Source of the DNA: Mobula hypostoma
Lineage: Eukaryota
Assembly (NCBI RefSeq): GCF_963921235.1
Contig: NC_086108.1
Coordinates: 83,826,001 to 83,890,000, forward strand
Direction of reading: 5' to 3'
DNA: 64,000 nt
Under the pieces are notes generated by a model that was given only the letters and a program-made list of their open reading frames with translations, had not been told where the DNA came from and did no database searches. The stretch's first letter is position 1. Each line of letters opens with the position of its first letter. Of the stretch, positions 1 to 63,807 are shown in pieces. A program made the position numbers and the translations under genes.

Positions 1-540
1 ATAGACCCACCGTAGATCTCCCAGTGCATCATAGCAGTGATGGAAACTGCTCTATCAGGATTGCAAGAAGATTGCAGAGTGTTGAATTTACTATCCTATC
101 CATTAAAAAGACTAATTTCACCTCCAATGATTCTGTCTGCAGTTCTCACTGCCTTGGGAAGGCAGCCAACGTAACCAAAGACCCTTCCCACCCTGGCCAT
201 CCTCTCTTCCATCAGGCAGAATATACAAAAGTCTGAGAATATGTGTCACTGAAGTCAAGGACAGCTATCCTGCTGTTATATACTGTATGTAACTCATAAA
301 GGAACCTTTTATATGCTAAAGATGAACTCTTCATCTCTCAATCTTTCAATAAAATGCTCTTACGTTTTATTTGCCTACCTGCGCTGAACTTTCTCTGTAG
401 CTGTAACATTATTTTTTGCATTTTTTTAATCTTTTGCACTACCTTGATGTATTTGTGCATGGAATGAACTGTTTGGATGGCATGCAGACCAATGCTTTTC
501 CCTGTATCCCAGTATATGTGACAGTGATAAACCAATTACC
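1..540 (+). mobile_element. Decayed Rex/Babar- or L2-like LINE 3' portion
   Basis: ORF 24..236 contains KDPSHPGHPLF, a motif that recurs in the RT C-termini of the other Rex-like copies here; an AT-rich tail with AATAAA-like signal follows. Confidence 0.55.
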
Positions 541-2489: not shown

Positions 2490-2950
2490 AATCAGAATCA
2501 GGTTTTAATATATAAACAATATATTAAAATTACTAAAACTTACAATATAAAATATTAAAAAAATTAAAAATAGTGAAAAAACAGAGCAAGATCGTGAGGT
2601 ACTATTTATGGATTCATGGACCATTCGGAAATCTGTTGGCAGAAGGGAAGAAAAGTTCCTAAAACATTGAATCTCTGTCTCCAGGCTCCTTCGTCTCCGT
2701 TTTGGTGGTAGCAATGAGAAGAGGGCATATTCTAGGTGGTGGGGTTCCTTCATGATGGGTTGCATCTGAATTACAAATATTTAAGGCAGAGGTAGATAGC
2801 TTCTTGATTGGTCAGGGTATAAAGAGACACAGGGCGAAGGTAGGAGATTGGGGCTGAGAGGAATAATGGATCAGCCATGATGAAATGGTGGAGCAGACTC
2901 AATGAGTCAAATTGCCTTATTCTGCTCCAATATCTTATGGTCTTATGGTC
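2490..2950. mobile_element. Rex-like LINE 3' end (-) followed by CR1 3' end (+)
   Basis: (agaatc)n tail and the peptide EPHHLEYALFSLLP on -; 2775-2950 is a CR1 3'UTR ending ctgctccaatatcttatggtcttatggtc. Confidence 0.6.
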
Positions 2951-3644
2951 ATATTTACTTTTACACACTTTACTACATGATGTGGATTGCTTCCTGGACC
3001 CATAACCTGTGGCTCCCACCAGACTAGAATCAGTGGACCCATCTGCCAAAAGGCTATCTCAACAGCTTTTGCACTTTTGAGTTAGGTGCCAAATGTCCCC
3101 AATCTGATGAGGTGGTGAGTGACGGATACGGCGCCTTCTGTTACCCAGTGGTCTCAGATCCCCATACTCGGGAGCAGAGGAGTGAAAGTCCAACACTCAC
3201 TGAAGACCCAACAGCTGTAAGTCACTGGTTTGACTGGAACGCCAGTCGGTAAGATTAGAATCCGAATCAGATCACTTTATTGCCAGTATGTTAAACATTC
3301 TAGAATTGATGTGGTTTGGTACCAAGCATAAGGCACAGGACAAATCCATAAGAGACAAGACAATAGCAACCAACAATTTACATGTCAGTAGTGCAAACAG
3401 CCACGAGCAATCAACAATTAGCAGAATGGTCACGTGCAAATGTCAATAATCAAACTTAAATAAATGTGAATATATGAACAGACTCAATAATTATCAACAG
3501 GACAAGGAGAGCAGGAAAGACCATTTTCCAGATGTGCGGGGATGGTTAGGGTACTACGCCTGATTGAGTTTTGCTAAGAAACTGGATGGTGACAGACTTG
3601 CAGCTTCTCTGTCAGTTGTTGTTAACAGGCTTGGTCATAAAATC

Positions 3645-4510
3645 CCCACAAAACTAATCAATAAGCTCCAAGACCCAGGCCTCGATACCGCTTTGTCCAA
3701 TTGGATCCTCTATTTCCTTACTTGTAGTCAGTCCGGATTGATGGCAACATCTACTTCACAATCACCATCAGCACAGGTTATCAGAAGGTTGCACGCTTAT
3801 CCTCCTGCTCTACTCATTTTATATTGTGAGATTAAGTACAGCTCCAATGCCATATTTAGGTTTCCTGATACACTACTGTTATTGGCCAAATCAAAGGTGA
3901 CGATGTGTCTTCATACAGAAAGGAGATTGAAAATCTGTTTGAATGGTGCCACAATAACAACCTTTCACTTAACGGCAGCCAAACCAAAGAGCTGATTATT
4001 GACTACGGGAGAGAGAACCAGAGGTCCATGAGCTAGTGCTCATTATGCTGAAGAGGGACAGCAACTTTAAATTCCTTGGCAGATTCAGAATGAAACTAAG
4101 CCATTGACAAACCTCTATAGATGCACAGTGGAGAGTATCCTGACTGGATGCAGCATGGCCTGACATGGAAAGAACAATGCCCAAGAACAGGAAGACTTAC
4201 AAAAAGTGGTGGGTGCAGCCCAGTCCATCAGAGGAAAAGCCCTCCCCACCATTGAGCACATCTGCAAAAAAAAACACCACTAGAAAACTGTATCCAACAT
4301 CAACAGCCCCCATCATCCAGGCCATGTTGTCTTCTCACTGCTGCCATCGGGAATGAGGTTCAGAAACCTCAGTATCCTTACCACCAGATTTAGGAACAGT
4401 TATTACCTTTCAATCATCAGGCTCCTCAAACCTTCACACCTCAACAGTGAACTGATTGCACAATATATGGACCCACTTTCAAGGACTCTACAACTCATGT
4501 TACTAGTATA
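3645..4510 (+). mobile_element. Decayed Rex1/Babar-type LINE RT fragment
   Basis: Peptides PTKLINKLQDPGLDTALSNWIL and TTRFRNSYYLSIIRLL, with frameshifts. Confidence 0.75.
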
Positions 4511-4514
4511 TTTA

Positions 4515-5243
4515 ATGTTGCTAAAACAAAGGAGCTGGTTGTGGACTACAGGAGGAATGGAGAGGGGCTAACCCCTATAGACATCAATGGATCTGGGGTT
4601 GAGAGGGTGAACAGCTTTATGTTCCTCAACATCCACATCACCGAGGAACTCACGTGGTCTGTACACACCAGCTGTGTGGTGAGAAAGCACAACAGCGCCT
4701 CTTTCACCTCAGACGGTTGAGGATGTTTGGTATGGGGCCCCAAATCCTAAGAACTTTCTACAGGGGCACAACTGAGAGCATCCTGACTGGCAGCATCACT
4801 GCCTGGTATGGAAACTTAACCTCCCCTAATCGCAGGTGTCTGCAGAGAGTGGTGCGGACAGCCCAGCGCATCTGTAGTTGTGAACTTCCCATGATTCAGG
4901 ATATTTACAAAGACAGGTGTGAGAAAATGGCCCAAAGGATCATTAGGGACCCGAGTCACCCCAACCACAATCTATTCCAGCTGCTACCATCCGGAAAACG
5001 GTACCACAGCATAAAACCCAGGACCAACAGGCTCCGGGACAGCTTCTTCCACCAGGCCATCAGACTGATTAACTCACATTGATTTGAGTGCACTTCTAAG
5101 TTACATTGACTGTTCTATTTATTATAAATTATTATAAATCACTATGATTGCACATTGCACATTTAGACAGAGTCGTAATGCAAAGATTTTTACTCCCCAT
5201 GTATGTGAAGGATGTAAGAAATAAAGTCAATTCATTCATTCAT
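4515..5243 (+). mobile_element. Younger 5'-truncated Rex1/Babar LINE
   Basis: ORF 4654..5082 (ESILTGSITAWYGN...DPSHPNHNLFQLLPSGKRY...SFFHQAIRLIN); ends aataaagtcaattcattcattcatt. Confidence 0.85.
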
Positions 5244-6821: not shown

Positions 6822-7015
6822 TGAGAGCGCGCTGTGGGCGAGACAGAGAGAGAGAGTCAGCGCACCCGTGAGTGCCGCGGGAGAGCCAGGGAGAGAGCAG
6901 GCAAAGATTTTACCCTTTGAGTGTGTGTCTCTCTCTCTGTGTGCGGGTCCTGGGCAGCCAGATAGCCGGGAATTCACCCTTCGCCTGTGGTTTTAAGCAT
7001 CTTGCTCCGGGGAGA

Positions 7016-7846
7016 ATGTCGGCAGTGATGCTGCCCGAGTCTCTCAACCTTTCGAGCTGGGAAGAAGTTAATGGCACCTCGGCTAATGCCTCTGCAGTGT
7101 CTTTGAACATCAGGTCCAGCCAGGTTATCACCCCGGCCAGCATGTTCGCCGTCGGGGTGGTGGGGAACCTCATCGCCATCGTGGTGCTGTGCGTCTCCAA
7201 GAAGGAGCAGAAGGAAAGCACCTTCTACACCCTGGTGTGCGGACTGGCCGTCACCGACCTGCTGGGCACCTGCTGCACCAGCCCGCTGGTGATCGCCACC
7301 TACTTGACCCAGCAGTGGCCCGGAGGACAACCGCTCTGTCACTTCTTCTCCTTCTCCATGCTCTTCTTCGGCTCGGCCGGCATGACAATCCTGTGCACCA
7401 TGTCCATCGAACGCTACCTGGCCATCAACCACGCCTTCTTCTACAGCCAGTACATCGACAAGGGGATGGCCAGGATAGCTCTGATGGGAGCCTACTTGCT
7501 CAACCTGGTCTTCTGCATCCTGCCCTTCTTCGGTCTGGGGAGGAACGCCAGGCATTTCCCCGGCACCTGGTGCTTCCTGGACTGGCGAGCCAACAGCACG
7601 GTGTGCGCCACCTATACCTACATGTACGGGGGCTTCAGCGCTTTGCTGATCCTGGTCACAGTTCTGTGCAACCTGTGCGTCTGCGCCACCCTCATCAGCA
7701 TGAGGAAGAAGTCCGTGGGGACGGCCACGGGAAGCTCGAGGGGTCGCCGCTTCCCCAACCTAGCCGCGTCCGCCGCCGAGATGCAGATGTTCTGGCTGCT
7801 GGTTTTCATGACCATCGTCTTCCTGGTCTGTTCCATCCCTCTGGTG
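7016..7846 (+). CDS. ptger4c: Prostaglandin E2 receptor EP4-like (EP4c paralog), coding exon 1 (TM1-TM6)
   Basis: EP4 signatures GVVGNLIAIVVL, KKEQKESTFYTLVCGLAVTDLLGT, ERYLAINH, PGTWCF, CSIPLV. Phase-0 donor GTG|GTAAGC at 7846/7847, the conserved prostanoid-receptor intron. HFFSFSMLFFGSAGM resembles fish ptger4c rather than canonical PTGER4 (from memory). Confidence 0.92.
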
Positions 7847-8204
7847 GTAAGCAAGGCAGGGCGAGCAAGGGAAATAAAAGGCGGCAAGGAACAGTGGAGA
7901 GCTTCTGCCTGACTACGAATGGAAAAAGCTTTCCACTGCCTTGAGTACGAAGGGGTACCGGGCAGATTTAGAAGTGCGAACTTCGTTGACTTTCTAGCCA
8001 GACAAAAAGGAACAAACTTTTCATTCAGGTTTTATTTCTGCATTTAAAGTCATTTATCCCGTGTCACTTTTCGCTTAAAAATTAATTTAAGACATTTTCA
8101 AATTGTCTTTTTTCACAGTTTTTAATCTGTTAAGTATTGGTCCTTCGGTATGATGGGACTGATCTTAAGTAGACATCAGTATGGTGGGACCGATCTTAAA
8201 TGGG

Positions 8205-11454: not shown

Positions 11455-11957
11455 ACTTAGAACATATAATATTACAGCACATTACAGGCCCTTTGGCCCA
11501 TAATGTTGACCTTTTAACCTACTCTAAGATCAATCTAACCCTTCCCTCCTACATATCCCTCCATTTTTCTATCATCCATGTTCCTATCTAAGAGATTCTT
11601 AAATGCTCCTAATGTATCTGTCTCTACCACTACCCATGGCAGGGTGTTACACGCACACACCACTCTCCACTCTCCATATAAAGAACTGACATCTCCCTAT
11701 ACTTTTCACCAATCACTTTAAACTTATGGTGTCCTGCATCAGCCACATCTGCCCTAGGATAAAACCTCTATCTATCTGCTCTATCTACGCCTCTTAACAT
11801 CTTGTACATCTCTATCACGTCACCTCTCATCCTCCTTTGCTCCAAAGAGAAAAGCCTTAGTTTGTTCAACCTCTCCTCATAAGACATGTCCTGTAGTTCA
11901 GGCAGCATCCTGGTAAATCTCCTCCGCACCCTTCTTAAAGTTTCCACGTCCTTCCAG
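11455..11957 (-). mobile_element. CR1 3' fragment in the intron
   Basis: ORF 11768..12055 contains RRFTRMLPEL..MSYEERL..L.LFSLEQRRMRGD. Confidence 0.85.
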
Positions 11958-16449: not shown

Positions 16450-17715
16450 AAACCTACCGACACCCACGGCTATCTTGACTATACCTCATACCACCCTGTC
16501 GCCTGTTAAAATGCAATTCTCTTTCTCATTTGCTTCATCTGCGCTGCATCTGTTCCCCGGGTAGCTTTCCTTGCCAGGACATCCTCCTCCTTCAAAGAAC
16601 AGGGCTTTTCATCCTTCACCTTTGGAGCTGCCCTCACCCATATCTCCTCCATTTCCTGGCCATCCATTCTCATCCCATCTTCCCGTTGCCTGAACAGGGA
16701 TAGAGTTCCTCTTGACCTCACCTACCACACCTTGAGCGTCCACATCTGGCATATCATTTTCCACAATTTTTGCCATTTTCAATGGGGCCCTACATCGAAC
16801 ACATTTTTACCTCTCCCACCTCCATCTTCCACAGGGATCTCTCCCTCCATGATTCCCTTGTCCATTTGCCCTGCTCCATTTATCTCCCTCCGGCCACTTA
16901 TCCCTACAAGTGGAAGAAGTGCAACACCTGCCCATTCACCTCCTCCCTCAGCTCCATTTGGAACCTCAAACAATACTTCCAGGTGAGGCATTACTTCACC
17001 TGCAATCTGTTGGGGTCACCTACTGTATTGTGTGCTCATGATGCGGCCTCCCCTACTTTGGTGACACCCGATGAAGGTTGAGGGTCCCCTTTGTCGAGTA
17101 CCTTTGATCCATATGCAAAAAGCAGGATTTCCTGGTGGACAACCATTTTAATTCCGATCTCCATCCCATTCCGACATGTCGGCCTTCTCTACTGCAATGA
17201 TGAGGCCACTTTCAGGTTAGAGGAACAACACCTCATATTCCATCTGGGTGGCCTCCAACCTGATGGCATGAACATCAATTTCTCCAACTTCTGGTCATTT
17301 TCCCTCATCTCCCTTCCCTCTTCTCCAGTTCCCCATTCTGCCCTCCCTCTTACCTCGTTTCTTCTCTTCGTCTATCTATCATCTCCCCCAGGTGCCCCTT
17401 CCCCTGCCCTTTTTTCCATGGTCCACATTCCTCTCCTACCAGATTCCTGCTTCTCCGGCCCTATTCCTCCTATCATCCCCTGGCTTCTTTCTTCATCCCC
17501 TCTCTCCCACCCACCAGGCTTCACCTATCACCTTCTAGCTTCTATTCCTTGCCCTCTCCCACCTTCTTATGCTGGCTTCTTCACCCTTCCTTTCCAGCCC
17601 AAAATATCAGCTGTTTATTCATTTTCATAGATGCTTCCGGACCTGCTGAGTTCCTCCAGCATTTTGTGTGTGTGTTGCTCTGGATTTCCAACATCTACAG
17701 AATCTCCTGTGTTTA
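16450..17715 (+). mobile_element. Decayed Penelope (Neptune) fragment with pLTR; hammerhead core deleted
   Basis: KWKKCNTCPF and LEEQHLIFHLGGLQPDGMNINFSNF are homologous to 51601..52917; pyrimidine-rich 3'UTR and pLTR tail. Confidence 0.85.
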
Positions 17716-32209: not shown

Positions 32210-32386
32210 CAACAATCACAACATGCTGGAGGAACTCAGCGGACCAGGCAGCATCCGTGGAAACAATCAGTCAACGTTTCGGGCCGGAACTCTTCAATCA
32301 TTTCCACGGATGCTACCCGACCTGCTGAGCTCCTCCAGCGTGTTGTGAGTGTTGCTTTGACCCCAGCATCTGCAGGGTATTTTGTG
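32210..32386. mobile_element. Fold-back pLTR mini-element with perfect 15-bp TSD
   Basis: TSD cagacaataacaaag at 32195-32209 and 32387-32401. Arms 32206-32263 and 32301-32358 match about 50/58. Central minus-strand degenerate hammerhead tgattgaagagttccggcccGAAACGTTgactg. Confidence 0.88.
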
Positions 32387-33569
32387 CAGACAATAACAAA
32401 GTTCAATGAAGTGTAAAAGCCACCAAAAAGGTGCAACACCAGCATCTGCCGTGTGTGCCCTGCTGACTTGACACTAGTGTTGCCAAGCAGAGTTAAACCA
32501 TCTCTTAACTGTGACACTTACAATCCACTCAGCACTCACCAGCTCAGCACTTCAAGGCTGTGTGCATACCAGTTGCTCACGGAACAGGTTTGCATTGCTA
32601 GGTATTACTGGAGGCTGGCATACCTGCCAGGATAAGCAGAGGAGACAGCAGAATATAAATGGATGCAGAAATATTTACCTTCTCTTGCCTGCCCTGTGAT
32701 TTAGTAAGATAGTTCTGCTCCCACTGTCACTTGTGCAACCATTCTTGGGCAGGTAGAAAATAAATGTACACAACATTCTATAAGCAATCTCACCAGGATC
32801 CAACATAATTAGAATATGGAACATAGAACAGTACAGGCCCTTCAGCCCACATTGTTGTGCTGACCTTTAATCCTACGCCAAGGTCAATATAACAATTTCT
32901 TCTCACATTGTCCTCAATTTTTCCTTCATCTATGTGCCTATCTGAGTCTCTTAAAAGTCCCTAATGTATCTGCCTCTACCACTGTTCTTAGCAGCATGTC
33001 TATGCATCTACCAACCAGTGTTTTAAAAAAAACTTGTCTCTGACTCCCTCTAGTTATGACCTGTCCACCCAAAACTAACCCTTTCAATCCTACTGTTTTC
33101 TATTAACCACACCAGTATGTTAAGCCCAACAAAATGTGATCTGAATTTTACTTCGGTGTTCTACGTGCTGCCTTTATTGAAGGCTATTTGAGAGTGTGAA
33201 TACATAATATCTAGATTGCCCTCACCTATTCTGCCAGAAAATAAACAAATTTATCAAATAAAATTCCCTTTCAAAAGTCCCTGTTGATTTTGCCCAACTC
33301 TCAATTAGTTTCTGACTGCACTATTTTTACTCCCCAGTACTGAAATCGGTTTTAAGTGTCCTCATTTTTTTCTATCCCTTTCTTAGCCCACCTATCTTCC
33401 ACCCTACCCCTCATGCAAGTAGTGGAATTAGATTTACTACTGAATTGTCTCTGAATAGTTCGAGAATCTATGAAATTCCGGTGGAAATGCTGGTTGTCAT
33501 CTTCCACCTCCGTAGTCACCTCCTGAAAAACTTGGGATGCAGATTGTCAGTAGAAAAAAACCACCAATT

Positions 33570-42200: not shown

Positions 42201-42690
42201 AATGTGTTTAGTCTTTATCTTCTGAAGGCTGGTTCTGATTTGGATCTGCGGTATTCTATCCCTAACACCCTGATCTGCCATGCTCTCAAAAAGAAACAGA
42301 CTGGCCCTGAACTCTGTTTCACTTTGGAAAGAGATGTGAGTGTTAAATATGAGCTGTTGCATTTGATAGCCGTTATTGGTAGGCAAGAGATGGACATGTA
42401 TTTTACAATGTCTGGAATAGTGGAGCTTATCAGTTAAACCCCCAGGAAGATATACAAGTGGAAGTAAACATCCTCTGCTATACAAGCAGAGGTCTAAAGA
42501 ACAAAAGGAGGAAATAATGGTGAACAGTTATCACTTACAGGTTAGTCCCTAGCTGGGACTTTTTTGGAAAAATTGGTGAGGGGGAATTTGAATATCTAAA
42601 ACTATAATACATATGTCTACATACTTGAACATAGAATTGTACTGGACAGTTCAGATACTTAATTTCACATAGTTGTGCTGACCCATACCC

Positions 42691-42908
42691 TACTATCCTT
42701 TGGCCTTAACAGTCACATACTTGCAGATACTGACTGCAATGTTTCAATGGTAATCCTGATCATCTTCCTCAAGCACCAGCTAGTCAAATGATATTCTCCG
42801 CCCCACCCCCCTTTGGCCAATTTGTGCCTGAGAAAGATGGATGTGTTACCGTTGAAACGTTGCAATCAGTATCTGTAAGTATGTGACTGTTAAGGGCAAA
42901 GGATAGTA
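42691..42908. repeat. ~85-bp inverted repeat with a degenerate hammerhead in each arm (second family)
   Basis: Arms 42691-42776 and 42824-42908; the outer 63 bp match 58/63. Arm consensus gtgcCTGAGGAagatgg...ccrttGAAACGTTgca. Confidence 0.75.
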
Positions 42909-43837
42909 TGGATAGATTTGATAACCAGTCACAAAGCTTCCGTAGTCAGTGTTGACTTTTCAATCTACTCTAAAATCAATCTAGTCCTTCATAACCCTCC
43001 ATTTTTCTTTCATCCACGTGCCTGTCTCTGAGTTTCTTAAATGTCCCTAATTTATCTGCCTCTACCCCCACATCTGACAGTGTAGTCTAAACACCTACTA
43101 CTGTGGGGGAGGAAGCAAATCTACCTCTATGGTTTCTTCCAATCACCTTAAAATTTTGCCCCCTGTGTTAGCCATTTCCACCAGGGGGAAAAGGTTTCTA
43201 GCTGTCCACTCTATGCTTCTTATCACCTTGTACACCTCTCATCCTCCACTCCAAAGTGGGTCGCCCTAGCTTTCTCAGACGGCGCCAGCAAACTATGCAA
43301 CCAGCGGCGACGTCCTTCAGACAGATGTAGCTTTGTGAACTTTTGCTACTTTCAAGTATAATTCTACCAGTAAGCTGAATGCAATTGGAACCAGTGATTT
43401 GCAGTTTGGTGTGTGTTTTCAATGAGATGAGAGCAGAAGGCCAGCAGGTGTTCGGCACTGTCTGCCTGTGCTTGAAAGGTCTCCCTCTAGATTGCTGATG
43501 CCAGAGAGTTGAGTCTTAGGCAGGGTTTAATCAACGTGGTCTTTCAATTGGACTCTGCAGCTCATGTTATGTGCTTTGTGTTTCTGATTACACCTTTCAT
43601 TTTGATGGCGATTTTGATTGGGGCGGATTGGCTCCACAGCCTGCAGCCCATGATAGACAGCGCTGAACTGAACTGAAATTATCTAAAGTAAACTGAACAT
43701 TCCTAGACTGCTTCAAAGCTCTGTGGTTTGATGGTTAATATTCTGTGTGGTTTTTTCTTGTTTATTTGCTGTTTGTGCAATTTGTTCTTTTTTGCACGTT
43801 GGGTGTTTAATGTTTTCTGTGAACGGGATGCACGGTA

Positions 43838-46664: not shown

Positions 46665-48665
46665 CAGAATCGCTAGGGGGTGGGAACTGAACTGAAGGGA
46701 TGGAGGAAGGGGCTGTTGGCTCACAAATGGAGAAAGCTTGTAGGCAGTGTGAGGAGGAGGATAGGCAGGTGATAGAGAAGGGATGCACTCAGACCGATGG
46801 TTTGAGATGTGTCTATTTTAATGCAAGAAGCATCGTGAACAAAGCAGATGAACTTAGAGAGTGCATCAGTACTTGGAGCTATGATGCTGTGGCCATTACA
46901 GAGACTTGGACAGCTCAGGGGCAGGAATAGTTACTTAGAGTACCAGGCTTTAGATGTTTCAGAAAGGACAGGTAGGGAGGCAAAAGAGGTGGGGGCGTGG
47001 CTCTGCTGATCAGAGATAGTGTCACAGCTGCAAAAAAGGAGGAAGTCAGGGAGGGATTGTCTACTGAGCCTCTGCGGGTGGAAGTTAGGAACAGGAAGAG
47101 GTCACTAACTCTACTGGGTGTTTTTTATAGACCACCCAATAGTAACAGGGACACCGAGGAGCAGATAGGGAAACAGATTCTGGAAAGGTGTAATAATAAC
47201 AGGGTTGTTGTGGTGGCAGATGTTAATTTCCCAAATATTGATTGGCATCTCCCTACAGCAAGGTGTTTAGATGGGGTAGAGTTTGTTACATGTGTTCAGG
47301 AAGGTTTCCTGACAATATGTAGATAAGCCTACAAGAAGAGAGGCTGTATTTGATCTTGTATTGGGAAATAAACCTGGTCAGGTGTCAGGTCTCTCAGTGA
47401 GAGAGCATTTTGGAGATAGTGATCACAATTCTATCTCCTTTACCATAGCATTGGAAAGGGATAGGAACAGACAAGTTAGGAAAGTGATTATTTGGAGTAA
47501 AGGAAAATATGAAGCTATCAGGCAGGAACTTGGAAGCATAAATTGGGAACAGATGTTCTCAGGGAAATGTACGGCAGAAATGTGGCAAATACTCAGGGGA
47601 TACTTGAATGGCGTTTTGCATAGGTACATTCCAATGAGATAGGGAAAGGATGGTAGGGGACCTGTTCTCTTCGTGATTTTTATAAATGACCTGGATGAGG
47701 AAGTGGAGGGTTGGGTTAGTAAATTTGCTGATGACATAAAGGTTGGGGGTATTGTGGATAGTGTGGAGGGCTGTCAGAGGTTACAGCGGGACATCGATAG
47801 GATGCAAAACTGGGCTGAGAAGTGGCAGATGGAGTTCTACACAGATAAGTGTGAGGTGGTTCATTTTGGTATGTCAAATATGATGGCAGAATATAGTATT
47901 AATGGTAAGACTTTTGGCAGTGTGGAGGATCAGAGGGATTTTGGGGTCCAAGACTATAGGACACTCAAAGTAGCTGCACAGGTTGACTCTGTGGTTAAGA
48001 AGGCATACAGTGCATTGGCCTTCATCAATCGTGGGATTGAGTTCAAGAGCTGAGAGGTAATGTTACAGTTATATAGGATCCTGGTCAGACCTCACTTGGA
48101 GTACTGTGCTTAGTTCTAGTCACCTCACTACAGGAAGGATGTGGAAACTATATAAAGAGTGCAGAGGAAATTTCAAGAATGTTGTCTGGATTGGGGAGCA
48201 TGTCTTATGAGAATAGGTTGAGTGAACTTGGCCTTTTCTCCTTGGAGCAGCGGAGGATGAGAGGTGACCTGATAGAGGTGTATAAGATGATGAGAGGTGA
48301 CCTAATAGAGGTGTATAAGATGATGAGAGGCATTGATCGTGTGGATAGTCAGAGGCTTTTTCTCAGGGCTGAAATGGCTAACACAAGAGGGCACAGATTT
48401 AAGGTGCTTGGAAGTAGGTACAGAGGCGATGTCATGGGTAAGATTTTTTTAATGCAGAGAGTGGAGAGTGTGTGGAATGGGCTGCCAGCGACGGTGGCGG
48501 AGGCTGATACAACAGGGTCTTTTAAGAGACTCCTGGGTAGGTACATGGAGCTTAGAAAAATAGAGGGCTATGGGTAACCCTAGATAATTTCTAAAGTAAG
48601 TACATGTTTGGCACGGCATTGTGGGCTGAAGGGCCTGTATCATGCTGTAGGTTTTCTATGTTTCT
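46665..48665 (+). mobile_element. CR1 with large internal deletion
   Basis: APE domain (YFNARSIVNK, VAITETW, FYRPPNS, SDHNSI) joined at ~47657 to RT (FINDLD, KFADD); tail ttttctatgtttct. Confidence 0.9.
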
Positions 48666-49256: not shown

Positions 49257-50440
49257 CTTAGCGGAGGGGGAAAAAAAAGATGACCTTCCTCTTATGGCAG
49301 TGTTTCCTTGTCCAGCCACTGCAAAGAGTTTGGGGTAAGGTTTCAGAGAGCAAACACAAGAAAGCAGATGTGGATGAAATCTTTTCAAAATGAGGAAGGA
49401 TTTGTTTAAATACAACAAATTACACAACGAAGTTGATTGATATTTTGTTATGTTTAAACATATCATTGTTTAACATTCATCCAGGCCAATGAAAAGCACA
49501 GCAGTTTAGTTAACTAATTAATTTAGAAATGAGAAGCATATGCATGAAACAAACCACTGGTGAAAATAAAGCAAAATAAATTCCTGCTGATCTTACGATA
49601 TCATCACATTACTCCAGCCGGAAGTACACAATGGGGAATACTGAAGTTTCCAGCTATTTGGAAGAGTGTGATGACCTAAAATGCAGGATAAATGTACCTT
49701 CCTATTATAAAGTAGGCAATGCTTGAAATTTTCAGCAGGTCACCGGCATCAATGGAGAAACTAACAGAATTAAAACTTCCAGTTGTCTTGTAACAACTGA
49801 ATCAGATTTAATATTGCTGGCATATATTGTGAAATTTGTTATAATAAAGCTATACAATAGGAAAGACAAACATTTAAATTAAATATTTAGTGCAAAGAGA
49901 CAGCAATAAAAAAAGAAACAAAAATAGCGTGGTAGTGTTCATGGGTTCGTTGTCCATCCAGAGATCCGGCAGCAGAGAAGAAGCTGTTCCTAAAAAGTGT
50001 GTGTCCCCTCGGGCTTCTGTCCCACCTCCGTGAGGGTAGTAAAGAGAAGTGGGCATGTCCTGGGTGATGGGGGTCCTTCATAATGGGTGTTGCCTTTTAA
50101 AGATGTCCTCGATGCTGGGGAGTTAAGTGCCCATGATGAATTTAAAACTAAGATTATGCCCATGATGGAGCTGACTGAGATTTTGTTTGTAGCTAGAGAC
50201 TTTCTAAAACACACCCCACATTATTAACCACTTTAAAAGTTTCAATACATAAATTGCAATTAAAGTTAGTCGATATAATTATTAATCGACCGTCACTGGA
50301 AAAATAAATGCATAGGAATTGGGGCTTTGCATCAACTAACATCATGCTCAGCCAATTTAAATACAATCAATCTCGCTCTCCATAATCTGATTACTCATCC
50401 TACATCAGAGAAGCCGATAAAAGTATGGTGGGAGAAGGTT

Positions 50441-52917
50441 ATCGCCTCCACAATTAGTCTGGCTGCAGCTTCTCCACAAACTGCCACCGTCTCCCCTTCC
50501 CCCACCACCACTCTGCAATCCCGTCTCTCTCAGATCCCACTGTCAGCTCCTGGGTCCTCAGAGGCTCCACCTTCCTCTCACCCCAACCCTCCCCTCTCCA
50601 CTGACACACCCAGCCTCCCCCCTCCCCCCTCCCCCTCTGATCCCAGCTCTCATCCGTGCCGGGTCTTTACCATCCCCTCCGACCTTCAACTGTCGGAGGC
50701 AGAACGCTCTGTTCTCAGTAAGGGCCTCACGTTTGTCCCCCTTCGCCCACACCTCAGCGAGTTCCGTGTTCACCATGACGCGGAACTGTTCTTCCGTCGT
50801 CTCCGTCTCCGAGCCTACTTCTTCGGCAAGGACTCTTCCACCCCCACCGATGACCCCTTCTCCCGTCTTCAACCCTCCTCCTCTTCATGGACACCCCGCT
50901 CTGGTCTTCTGCCTGCTCTGGATCTCTTTATCGCTAACTGCCGGCGGGACATCAACCGTCTCGACTTCACCGCACCTTGTTCCCATTCCAACCTCACTCC
51001 TTCGGAACGCTCTGCTCGCCACTCCCTCCGCACTAATCCTAACCTTATTATTAAACCCGCTGATAAAGGGGGTGCTGTTGTAGTCTGGCGTACTGACCTC
51101 TGCCTTGCCGAGGCACAGCGACAACTCGCGGATACCTCCTCTTATTTACCCCTCGATAGTGACCCCACTAAGGAGCACCAGGCCATTGTCTCCCACACCA
51201 TCACCAACTTTATCCGCTCAGGGGATCTCCCATCCACTGCTACCAACCTTATAGTTCCCACACCTCGCACTTCCCGTTTCTACCTCCTACCCAAGATCCA
51301 CAAACCTGCCTGTCCTGGCAGACCTATTGTCTCAGCTTGCTCCTGCCCCACCGAACTCGTTTCTGCATACCTCGACACGGTTTTATCCCCCCTTGTTCAA
51401 TCCCTTCCGACCTATGTTCGTGACACTTCTCACGCTCTTAAACTTTTCGATGATTCTAAGTTCCCTGGCCCGCACCGCTTCATTTTCACCATGGATGTCC
51501 AGTCCCTATATACTTCCATCCCCCATCAGGAAGGTCTCAAAGCTCTCCGCTTCTTTTTGGATTCCAGACCTAATCAGTTCCCCTCTACCAAGTCCGTCTA
51601 GTGGAATTAGTCCTTACTCTTAATAATTTCTCCTTTGGCTCCTCCCACTTCCTCCAAACTAAAGGTGTAGCTATGGGCACCCGCATGGGTCCGAGCTATG
51701 CCTGCCTTTTTGCCGGCTTTGTGGAACAATCTATGTTCCGAACCTATTCTGGTATCTGTCCCCCACTTTTCCTTCGCTACATCGACGACTGCATTGGCGC
51801 TGTTTCCTGCATACATACTGAGCGCGTTGACTTTATTAACTTTGCCTCCAACTTTCACCCTGCCCTCAAGTTTACCTGGTCCATTTCCGACACCTCCCTC
51901 CCCTTTCTAGATCTTTCTGTCTATATCTCTGGAGACAGCTTATCTACTGATGTCTACTATAATAAGCCTACTGACTCTCACAGCTATCTGGACTATTCCT
52001 CTTCTCACCCTGTCTCTTGCAAAAATGCCATCCCCTTCTCGCAATTCCTCCGTCTCTGCCGTATCTGCTCTCAGGATGAGGCTTCTCATTCCAGGACGAG
52101 GGAGATATCCTCCTTTTTTTTTAAAGAAAGGGGCTTCCCTTCCTCCACCATCAACTCTGCTCTCAAACGCATCTCCCCCATTTCACGCACATCTGCTCTC
52201 AGTCCATCCTCCCGCCACACCACTAGGAATAGGGTTCCCCTGGTCCTCACCTACCACCCCACCAGCCTTCAGGTCCAACATATTATTCTCCGTAAATTCC
52301 GCCACCTCCAACAGGATCCCACCACTAAGCACATCTTTCCCTCCCCCCGCCCCCCTGCTTTCCACAGGGATCGCTCCCTACGCGACTCCCTTGTCCATTC
52401 ATCCCCCCCCCCCCCATCCCTTCCCACCGATCTCCCTCCTGGCACTTATCCTTGTAAGCGGAACAAGTGCTACACATGCCCTTACACTTCCTCCCTTACC
52501 ACCATTCAGGGCCCCAGACAGTCCTTCCAGGTGAGGCGACACTTCACCTGTGAGTCGGCTGGGGTGATATACTGCGTCTGGTGCTCCCGATGTGGCCTTC
52601 TATATATTGGCGAGACCCGACGCATACTGGGAGATCGTTTTGCTGAACACCTACGCTCTGTCCGTCAGAGAAAGCAGGATCTCCCAGTGGCCACACATTT
52701 TAATTCCATATCCCATTCCCATTCTGACATGTCTATCCACGGCCTCCTCTACTGTAAAGATGAAGCCACACTCAGGTTGGAGGAACAACACCTTATATTC
52801 CGTCTGGGATATTCCGTCTGGGATATTCCGTCTATTCCGTCTGGGATATTCCGTCTATTCCGTCTGGGTAGCCTCCAACCTGATGGCATGAACATTGACT
52901 TCTCTAACTTCCGCTAA
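50441..52917 (+). pseudogene. Penelope RT/GIY-YIG ORF broken by one frameshift near 51590
   Basis: ORFs 50327..51601 and 51601..52917 are consecutive halves of one protein. Confidence 0.9.
52795..52868 (+). repeat. Tandem microduplication (atattccgtctggg / attccgtct units), net +60 nt
   Basis: Read directly; the native C-terminus GSLQPDGMNIDFSNFR* stays in frame. Confidence 0.9.
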
Positions 52918-53197: not shown

Positions 53198-53233
53198 AGT
53201 CCTGACGAAGGGTCTCGGCCTGAAACGTCGACT
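53198..53233 (+). ncRNA. Minimal type I hammerhead ribozyme in Penelope pLTR
   Basis: agtc-CTGACGA (53202-53208)-agggtctcggcct-GAAAC-GTC (cleavage after 53229)-gact; palindromic ACGT stem III. Confidence 0.88.
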
Positions 53234-59312: not shown

Positions 59313-59446
59313 AAAAACATAAGAGATTCTGCAGATGCTGCAAATCCGGAGCTATAGATGCAAAATGCTGGAGGAACTCAGCAGGTTAGGCAGCATCTAG
59401 GGAGAGGAATAAACAGTCAATGTTTTGGGCTGAGACCCTTCAATAG
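59313..59446 (-). mobile_element. Solo Penelope pLTR with degenerate hammerhead; a decayed V-SINE follows to ~59720
   Basis: Reverse complement reads ctattgaagggtctcagcccaaaacattgactg...gatgctgcctaacctgctgagttcctccagca. Confidence 0.75.
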
Positions 59447-62895: not shown

Positions 62896-63344
62896 TCATC
62901 CCAAACACTTGCATTCAACTGCAGAAAAGTTCATGAGTGTGTGCCATTTGTTTTTCACGTCTAGAAAGGTTACATCATCGTACTTGATTGGTCGACAGCA
63001 TGGGCTACGGGTCACCTTCTCATGCTTCCTTAAACGGATCTCTTTATTCTTGAGCAGATTGGACAAGGTAAGGTCATAATTTGTCCGGGAGCGTGCACAG
63101 CTTCCACTGCAGTATTTGAAGAGTACGACCTCTTCTGATTCATACCCAAGTCCTAGACTTCTAACTTTGACTGTCTGGCTGTTAATCTGACATCCTCTGT
63201 TTGATCGGTTTGATTCTCTCTGCTTGTTTCTGCGTGAACCACTTGAAGGCATTGTACCTTGAAGCGAAGCCCCGGGCGAACGCTGATGACGGTTTTGTAG
63301 ATCCTCAGCAGGTGCTCCCGGTCTGTCTGAAGTTGGAGTTGCAT
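62896..63344 (-). CDS. ARTN: Artemin-like GDNF-family ligand, last coding exon
   Basis: Acceptor tgtgcag|AT (phase 1) at 63345/63344; furin site RHQR|SP; seven-Cys knot with LGLG, FKYCSGSC, CCRP. ARTN-like traits: SQxxxVRxLGLG, 7-residue CCRP-to-FxD spacing, DVxxxWxT, C-terminal CxCLG. Upstream exons were not found in the window. Confidence 0.85.
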
Positions 63345-63807
63345 CTGCACAAGATGGAACATCAAGTTAATACGAAACCTTAGCTTCCGTTCTTTTGATA
63401 GTATGGTTCCCAGACGAGCTTGTTTAGATGATTCAATGCTTTGCAACAAACCAGTACAAAGGACAAAAATAGAAAACGATTCTCTTCATAGCAAAAATCG
63501 TGGGAGTCTCACTACAAGTCAACAAAATAAAAACATTTAAGCATATTACAAATGGACTGTTTTAAACATTAATAACCCTACTGGAGACATATTTGTCTTG
63601 CAGCATGATAAATCTTGAATTTGACATTTTTCCCTGTTTCCTTAATTTTTGTTACCTCTTTCTCATTGTCTTCACAATAATTTCTGCATAGCTGAGAGGA
63701 GAGGTGCCTAAAATCTTTTTGGTCTCTGGACTATAGCCAAATGAATGCTTTCCTCTGATTTTAACCAAATCCGATGCTAGATGCAGGTTCCCCTGAAGTT
63801 TCTGATT

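Follow-up and report, generated by a model that had tools for sequence, protein, structure and literature searches.

A fold-back insertion with two damaged hammerhead motifs in Mobula hypostoma, likely a Penelope-like product of a second dispersed family

What left two hammerhead motifs on opposite strands of one hairpin, at positions 42691..42908 of a 64,000-nucleotide stretch of the Mobula hypostoma genome (NC_086108.1, 83,826,001 to 83,890,000; hereafter the window), and do the two form a paired device? We read the locus, with a probability of about 0.88, as a dead fold-back insertion of ~266 bp with an 8-bp target-site duplication (TSD), belonging to a second dispersed family and likely produced by a Penelope-like element (PLE) reverse transcriptase (RT) from two internal starts ~32 nt apart. 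The window also holds a rhodopsin-family receptor ORF (6872-7909), which we take to be PTGER4-like, a TGF-beta-family exon (62896-63363), presumably of GDNF, and a main PLE family with ORF pieces at 50279-52917 (weak GIY-YIG match, E 7e-4, below cut-off) followed by a minimal hammerhead at 53202. The end of this main family is present in 10 pieces in the window including the query copy (blastn), with 3' ends 67 and ~99 nt past the cut site. An Rfam match to MIR2118_2 at 32223-32341 (E 0.001, far under the gathering score) is a fold-back hairpin of the main family and a false miRNA call.

An earlier note on this DNA, made from the letters alone, had described arms of ~85 bp around a 47-nt spacer, and both measurements hold: 42688-42776 (minus strand) aligns with 42824-42911 at 77 of 90 identical columns, the remainder being 10 substitutions (7 of them transitions) and 3 gap columns, the ungapped core of the inverted repeat is 66 nt by repeat search, and 47 nt separate the two GTGC starts. 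The motif sequences quoted there were also found in the window. The hairpin is real, but its proposed extent of 42691..42908 was too short, as the element spans ~42683 to ~42948; the spacer, too, is mostly family sequence entering from both sides, with a unique part of ~20 nt (42792-42811). The insertion lies inside the tail of an older LINE, presumably CR1-type, whose 3' end (42619..43239, from flank matches to in-window paralogs) it interrupts. The left LINE flank matches 32803-32876 and 11455-11523, and the right flank 32857-33011, 11504-11813 and 48598-48307, the last of which overlaps an ORF (48077-48577) just downstream of an RVT_1 match at 47643-48050 (E 7.6e-7, 0.1 bit under the cut-off). 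When each flank is aligned on its own, the two fall on the same LINE-tail paralog (32820-33010) and overlap at its positions 38-45, which indicates an 8-bp target duplication and therefore places the insertion at ~42683-42948. The two TSD copies, 42675..42682 and 42949..42956, are 7/8 identical. The termini that they bound are complementary at 4 of 15 bases, i.e. without inverted repeats, because the right copy carries 32 extra bases (42917-42948) that are absent on the left.

The family was mapped with the stretch 42590-42950 at 80% likeness in four of 24 sequencing runs, in which 308 (X1, organism A), 286 (X5, organism B), 11 (X10, organism D) and 23 contigs (X16, organism A, RNA only by guess) were aligned, counts that include some matches to the flanking LINE; organisms C and E-J, with small word shares, were left out. 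An end of this stretch was overrun by 83 of the 308 X1 contigs. Summed depth in X1, itself no copy number, is 13.1 on the filler between the arms and reaches 3493 on the right arm, from which we infer hundreds of copies; it drops steeply toward the 5' side and climbs toward the outer end. Among the clusters listed, beyond which there are 211 further loose-end entries, loose ends of contigs gather at a proximal site, 42915-42919 (9 contigs in X1, 18 in X5, 3 in X10 and 4 in X16), and at a distal site, 42948-42949 (27 in X1, 24 in X5 and 4 in X16). The agreement among these loose ends is only 0.43-0.46 (X1, X5), which indicates unrelated flanks, and since the distal cluster lies 2 bases from the end of the mapped stretch at 42950, that boundary rests on the LINE-flank alignment instead. 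The family thus has two 3' ends ~32 nt apart, 55-58 and 87-88 nt past the predicted cut site. Upstream loose ends, with a median length of 128 nt, share sequence beside the arm, so the family extends upstream.

Four parts make up the insertion. An inverted, 5'-truncated partner copy without the tail (42683..42791, minus strand) is delimited by arm alignment, with its outer 5 nt fitting the family poorly and 5 X1 contigs aligning inward to 42791. It is followed by a unique C-rich filler (42792..42811), at single-copy depth in the X1 bin 42798-42810, and by a direct copy of the pLTR body up to the proximal 3' end (42812..42916, plus strand), delimited by loose ends and by one X5 contig aligning at 42812-42917. 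The last part is the 32-nt one-sided tail (42917..42948, plus strand), delimited by loose ends and by the LINE flank, which resumes at 42948/42949. Other fold-back joints of the family have inner breakpoints at 42718, 42722, 42732, 42747, 42751, 42753 and 42770. The left junction is present in organisms B (5 other letters in 134 bases) and D (4 in 172), together with a shared 8-nt deletion, so that the insertion is older than the splits among A, B and D; the whole hairpin core is common to two organisms, and in B the filler has 5 substitutions and 4 added C within 42797-42810. The 8-nt deletion at 42689, with several flank substitutions (42683-42700), separates B and D from A and is usable as a phylogenetic marker. 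Coverage in X16 is confined to 42824-42950 and comes from other copies, leaving the unique parts uncovered, and therefore says nothing on expression of the locus. Family-like patterns had no match in viral contigs or in a first metagenome scan, a relaxed metagenome scan gave two loci, both of unrelated families, and the second family was not among 209 pattern-collected loci (best E 0.2, among the matches listed).

The motifs were located with a descriptor (no more than one mismatch in each core box, at least 3 Watson-Crick pairs in stem I, at least 4 pairs in stem II) that was written with the motif already known, and that matches four sites on both strands of the 64 kb, namely 1768+ and 53202+ (main family), 42828+ and 42772-, the two arms not being independent. 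On order-2 Markov simulations of the window it gave 0 matches in 12 and 2 matches in 100. The right-arm motif, of minimal type I (42824..42864, plus strand), has a stem I of 3 bp and a stem II of 5 bp including two G-U pairs, with a predicted cut after 42861 at a GUU triplet; the left-arm motif, also of minimal type I (42735..42776, minus strand), has a stem II of 4 bp only. Each arm was said to carry its own core mutations, and it does, G8->A on the right and C3->U with G16.2->A on the left; intact CUGANGA and GAAA boxes with an NUH site are absent from both. The further claim that a consensus restores the core is borne out by the family, with C3 and G8 in the loose-end consensus of X1 (39 contigs, agreement 0.72), X5 (32) and X10 (3), giving CUGAGGA. 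The arm-specific U3 and A8 are missing from the family variant rows, and a few other copies may share these core changes, with placement bias as an alternative. One fold-back joint (42770->42846) belongs to another locus of the second family, with hammerheads in both inverted arms and present in organisms A and B, whose printed motif also has U3.

Compared with metazoan PLE minimal hammerheads as described in the accessible part of Cervera and De la Pena (2014; PMC4209133), which occur in pairs, one on each strand, at distances of 100-700 bp, the motifs here share the CUGANGA core, the unpaired base before stem II, an ACGU palindrome in place of stem III and the opposite-strand pairing. They differ from these in a stem I of 3 bp, in core mutations in both copies and in having G10.1-U11.1 rather than the conserved G10.1-C11.1 pair: both arms have U at position 11.1, and the family contigs show no C there at a frequency of 10% or more. 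A count of G10.1-C11.1 pairs among the collected hammerheads was discarded, as the search pattern itself imposes the pair and the count proves nothing. In X1, the family palindrome varies at 42858 (C>T, 47%) and 42859 (G>A, 33%), which is CpG decay, and the few within-family variants of stems I and II, each in a single contig, are consistent with the same process. An ATG in stem II, from which the ORF of PAc (Poseidon of Anolis; PMC11167929, accessible text) starts and stays open, was considered and rejected: the matching frame here stops at 42884-42886, and three of the contig sequences shown singly carry a C there, a sign of CpG decay.

The minimum-energy fold of the right arm shows stems I and II, at an ensemble frequency of 0.07 (z 0.82), and that of the left arm is not the hammerhead fold (z -0.03); these z-scores, and that of the downstream part (0.83), are insignificant, so folding energy backs neither the hammerhead nor the body-tail helix described below. 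The whole hairpin folds at -133.9 kcal/mol (z -14.8), and by this model a read-through RNA would fold to a long hairpin burying both hammerheads. Because the motifs are on opposite strands (sense and antisense), the two cannot form a parallel dimer, which minimal hammerheads are thought to need. For the ancestral family we predict that a working minimal hammerhead, either dimer-type or protein-assisted, is likely. No hammerhead family was matched by Rfam in the whole window at E<=1, a search that is uninformative since it also missed the intact main-family motifs.

The earlier note had gone on to infer a second hammerhead-bearing family, of Penelope or retrozyme type, with the main fold-back architecture. 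The second dispersed family and its main-family layout stand, as does the statement that its downstream sequence is unlike the main family (no blastn similarity outside the 8-nt core box, best E 0.34); the retrozyme option does not, as there is no tandem array. Both families have a minimal hammerhead, copies in fold-back arrangement, a pair of 3' ends spaced 32 nt and a predicted 8-bp body-tail helix with its 3' strand starting at tail base 10, while the main family has 10 pieces in the window against one locus of the second. The features of a PLE that are present here are the inverted 5'-truncated partner, the one-sided 32-nt tail with its two 3' ends, the 8-bp TSD and the pLTR hammerhead. 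Similar structures appear in the accessible parts of published accounts, with an inverted pLTR, an 8-10 bp TSD and a 31-bp one-sided tail in Pen2a_Av (PMC3846280), a tail of 30-40 bp and an inverted pLTR in PMC8557442, and the same typical PLE insertion structure in PMC8969392. The inverted, 5'-truncated head-to-head partner, 8-bp TSD and 30-40 bp tail are thus shared with canonical EN+ PLEs (Penelope/Poseidon, Neptune; PMC3846280, PMC8557442, accessible text), in contrast to which both copies here are only ~110-140 nt and have no ORF.

A further correspondence is with PAc (Frangieh et al., 2024; PMC11167929), for which the available text places the tail between two internal RT start sites, so that two 3' ends frame the tail as they do here, with RT starting in a stem-loop. 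The main RT start of PAc lies 111-118 nt into the ORF and its cut site at 26, i.e. 85-92 nt past the cut, compared with 87-88 for the distal end here; the PAc ribozyme needs protein, and its cleavage is dispensable for insertion in vitro. Non-LTR retrozymes (preprint 10.64898/2026.07.22.740005, accessible part) are likewise short, non-coding repeats related to PLEs and bearing a type I hammerhead, and are defined by head-to-tail tandem units, none of which is found here. This candidate was rejected, since the locus holds no array and none of the 14 listed joints runs head to tail, although contigs can collapse arrays. No ORF was found in the 266-bp unit, all three arm frames containing stops, and a protein search with one arm frame, which is weak evidence, gave no RT or GIY-YIG candidate; since no RT-GIY-YIG ORF, the feature that defines PLEs, was found, membership is judged from structure. 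The layout is already known, and the insertion is an ordinary, dead one of PLE type, which adds a second, lower-copy PLE family to a cartilaginous-fish genome. Nothing relevant on shark or skate hammerheads or PLEs was found in the literature searched, subscription papers being outside the search.

By analogy with the anole PAc, a GIY-YIG endonuclease would have nicked both strands 8 bp apart in the old LINE tail, and RT would have copied pLTR RNA from the distal start to give the copy with tail and from the proximal start to give the tail-less inverted copy. Both cDNAs would have stopped 12-33 nt upstream of the hammerhead and then been joined head to head through the ~20 nt of filler. The two start sites, read in the light of PAc, suggest two RT events. 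The hammerhead pair is a by-product of where copying stopped and not a paired device, because the motifs are on opposite strands, a core base is lost in each, and a hairpin would form over both in read-through RNA.

Three other explanations were weighed against this reading. The unit could be a PLE derivative that is not autonomous and resembles a SINE or retrozyme; it would never have encoded an ORF and would have been moved in trans by a different PLE, perhaps that of the main family. The lack of an ORF in the unit or by protein search, the steep 5'-ward fall of family depth, a tail-pairing helix whose geometry the main family shares and the report, in the accessible text of PMC3846280, that pLTR sequences suffice for trans mobilisation would all fit; yet the locus shows no tandem array, the 14 joints listed include none that is head-to-tail, and the upstream loose ends show the family continuing in that direction. 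We consider this derivative unlikely; it shares the PLE mechanism and differs in autonomy only.

Far less probable is a MITE with hAT-like DNA-transposon terminal inverted repeats and a hammerhead likeness arising by chance, for which the long inverted arms, the short spacer and the 8-bp TSD could be cited, as an 8-bp TSD also fits hAT DNA transposons. That the arms might prove to be such repeats had been named beforehand as what would refute the hammerhead family, and the comparison came out against them, with 4/15 complementarity between the TSD-bounded termini and a 32-nt tail on one side only. Moreover, just 44 of the 308 X1 contigs can be placed twice, the inner breakpoints are variable, depth climbs toward the outer end and the motif is rare by chance, so that the MITE reading is largely refuted. 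Least probable of all is that selection has kept the paired hammerheads as an exapted, functional element in cis, either for cleavage in both directions or as a regulatory hairpin. Although the left junction is common to three organisms and the whole hairpin core to two, a neutral insertion that predates a split of ~2-4% divergence accounts for this, and selection is argued against by the core substitution in each arm, the differences between arms at 10 of ~87 aligned positions, the 8-nt deletion at 42689 in B and D, and a hairpin that buries the motif.

Within the PLE insertion, the part that may be new is a predicted helix between body and tail. The sole perfect Watson-Crick stem of at least 6 bp between them is one of 8 bp, pairing 42882-42889 with 42926-42933; its 5' strand starts 21 nt past the cut site, and tail base 10 is the first of its 3' strand. 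In the main family the corresponding helix, likewise of 8 bp, starts at +19 and again at tail base 10, and 4 of its 8 pairs are changed on both strands (sites at 1675-1755 on the minus strand, 17629-17696 and 59333-59398). The tail-shuffle P for any such stem is 0.028 for the second family and 0.009 for the main one. For comparison, other minimal hammerheads were collected by pattern (at least 211 matches in at least 209 loci); among the matches listed, 33 passed with a stem I of at least 3 and a stem II of at least 4, 168 that clearly failed were used as controls and 10 intermediates were left out, leaving, after one passing locus proved too short, 32 loci in 19 families.

With the 5' window (16-24) fixed beforehand and the 3' window (55-80) picked after seeing the comparator data, a perfect stem of at least 7 bp was found, among the matches listed, in 5 of the 19 unrelated families, where dinucleotide shuffles give an expectation of 1.09 (P 0.0014); counted by locus, the figures are 6/32 versus 2/168 controls. 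Allowing one G-U pair raised this to 7 of 19 families (2.45 expected), and wider, post-hoc windows to 9 of 19 (4.13 expected), again among the matches listed. Comparator loci with the helix are L001, L015, L021, L039 and L043; L001 and L039 share stem sequence, as do L015 and L043, so these positives are not independent. Among the matches listed, five passing loci have the end of a PLE-type endonuclease just upstream (tblastn), several have fold-back arms ending 42-53 nt past the cut, and similarity among family members often breaks off at +47 to +57, ahead of the helix 3' strand, which is expected if that strand sits in an optional tail. The strict stem is absent from 14 of the 19 families among the matches listed, some of which have no tail and at least two of which are probably chance prokaryotic or phage matches.

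It is possible, though we hold it only tentatively and at somewhat less than even odds, that the helix is a second conserved RNA element of PLE pLTRs across animals besides the hammerhead, acting as an RT docking and initiation signal that would fix both starts and the 30-40 bp tail. Such a signal would consist of a 7-9 bp helix with its 5' strand ~20 nt past the cut and its 3' strand ~7-13 nt into the tail, so placed that the proximal RT start would fall inside the helix loop and the helix would end ~15 nt before the distal start. The stem-loop at the RT start of PAc may be the same helix. The helix could bear on how the PLE RT picks two internal starts and on why the tail is 30-40 bp, and since it is kept in position and not in sequence, a direct mutational test is possible in the PAc in vitro system. 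No description of the helix as conserved across PLEs was found in the literature searched (subscription papers, Repbase and Dfam being outside the search), and it is not described in the accessible parts of PMC6765202, PMC2377424 and the retrozyme preprint 10.64898/2026.07.22.740005.

Several minor observations accompany these results. A perfect splice-donor-like GTAAGT at 42875-42880, 14 nt past the cut site, is the family majority sequence, and the main family has an acceptor-like pyrimidine tract and AG at a comparable position; introns can occur in PLE pLTRs, and both signals may be chance. An ATG at 42908 is followed by 13 open codons through the tail (to 42948), a frame that chance gives about half the time; in rotifer Pen2a, according to the accessible text of PMC3846280, the first ORF residues are encoded by pLTR and tail. 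Contigs binned as bacterial MAGs, of the series CBDDTI... (L010, L012, L014, L026, L060) and CBDBCZ... (L028, L036, L050, L051, L054, L055, L058, L066), carry animal-type minimal hammerheads of several families, five with a PLE endonuclease end upstream, and likely contain eukaryotic host DNA. On the 4.9-kb contig CBDHCQ010000006.1, L039 and L040 are near-identical minimal hammerheads in opposite orientation ~1.6 kb apart, forming a longer fold-back PLE unit. Locus L002, on an AT-rich eukaryotic metagenome contig, has an intact minimal hammerhead with a GUU site (1973-2007) beside a repeat-rich ORF of 780 aa (2516-4858), which we take to be TPR-like.
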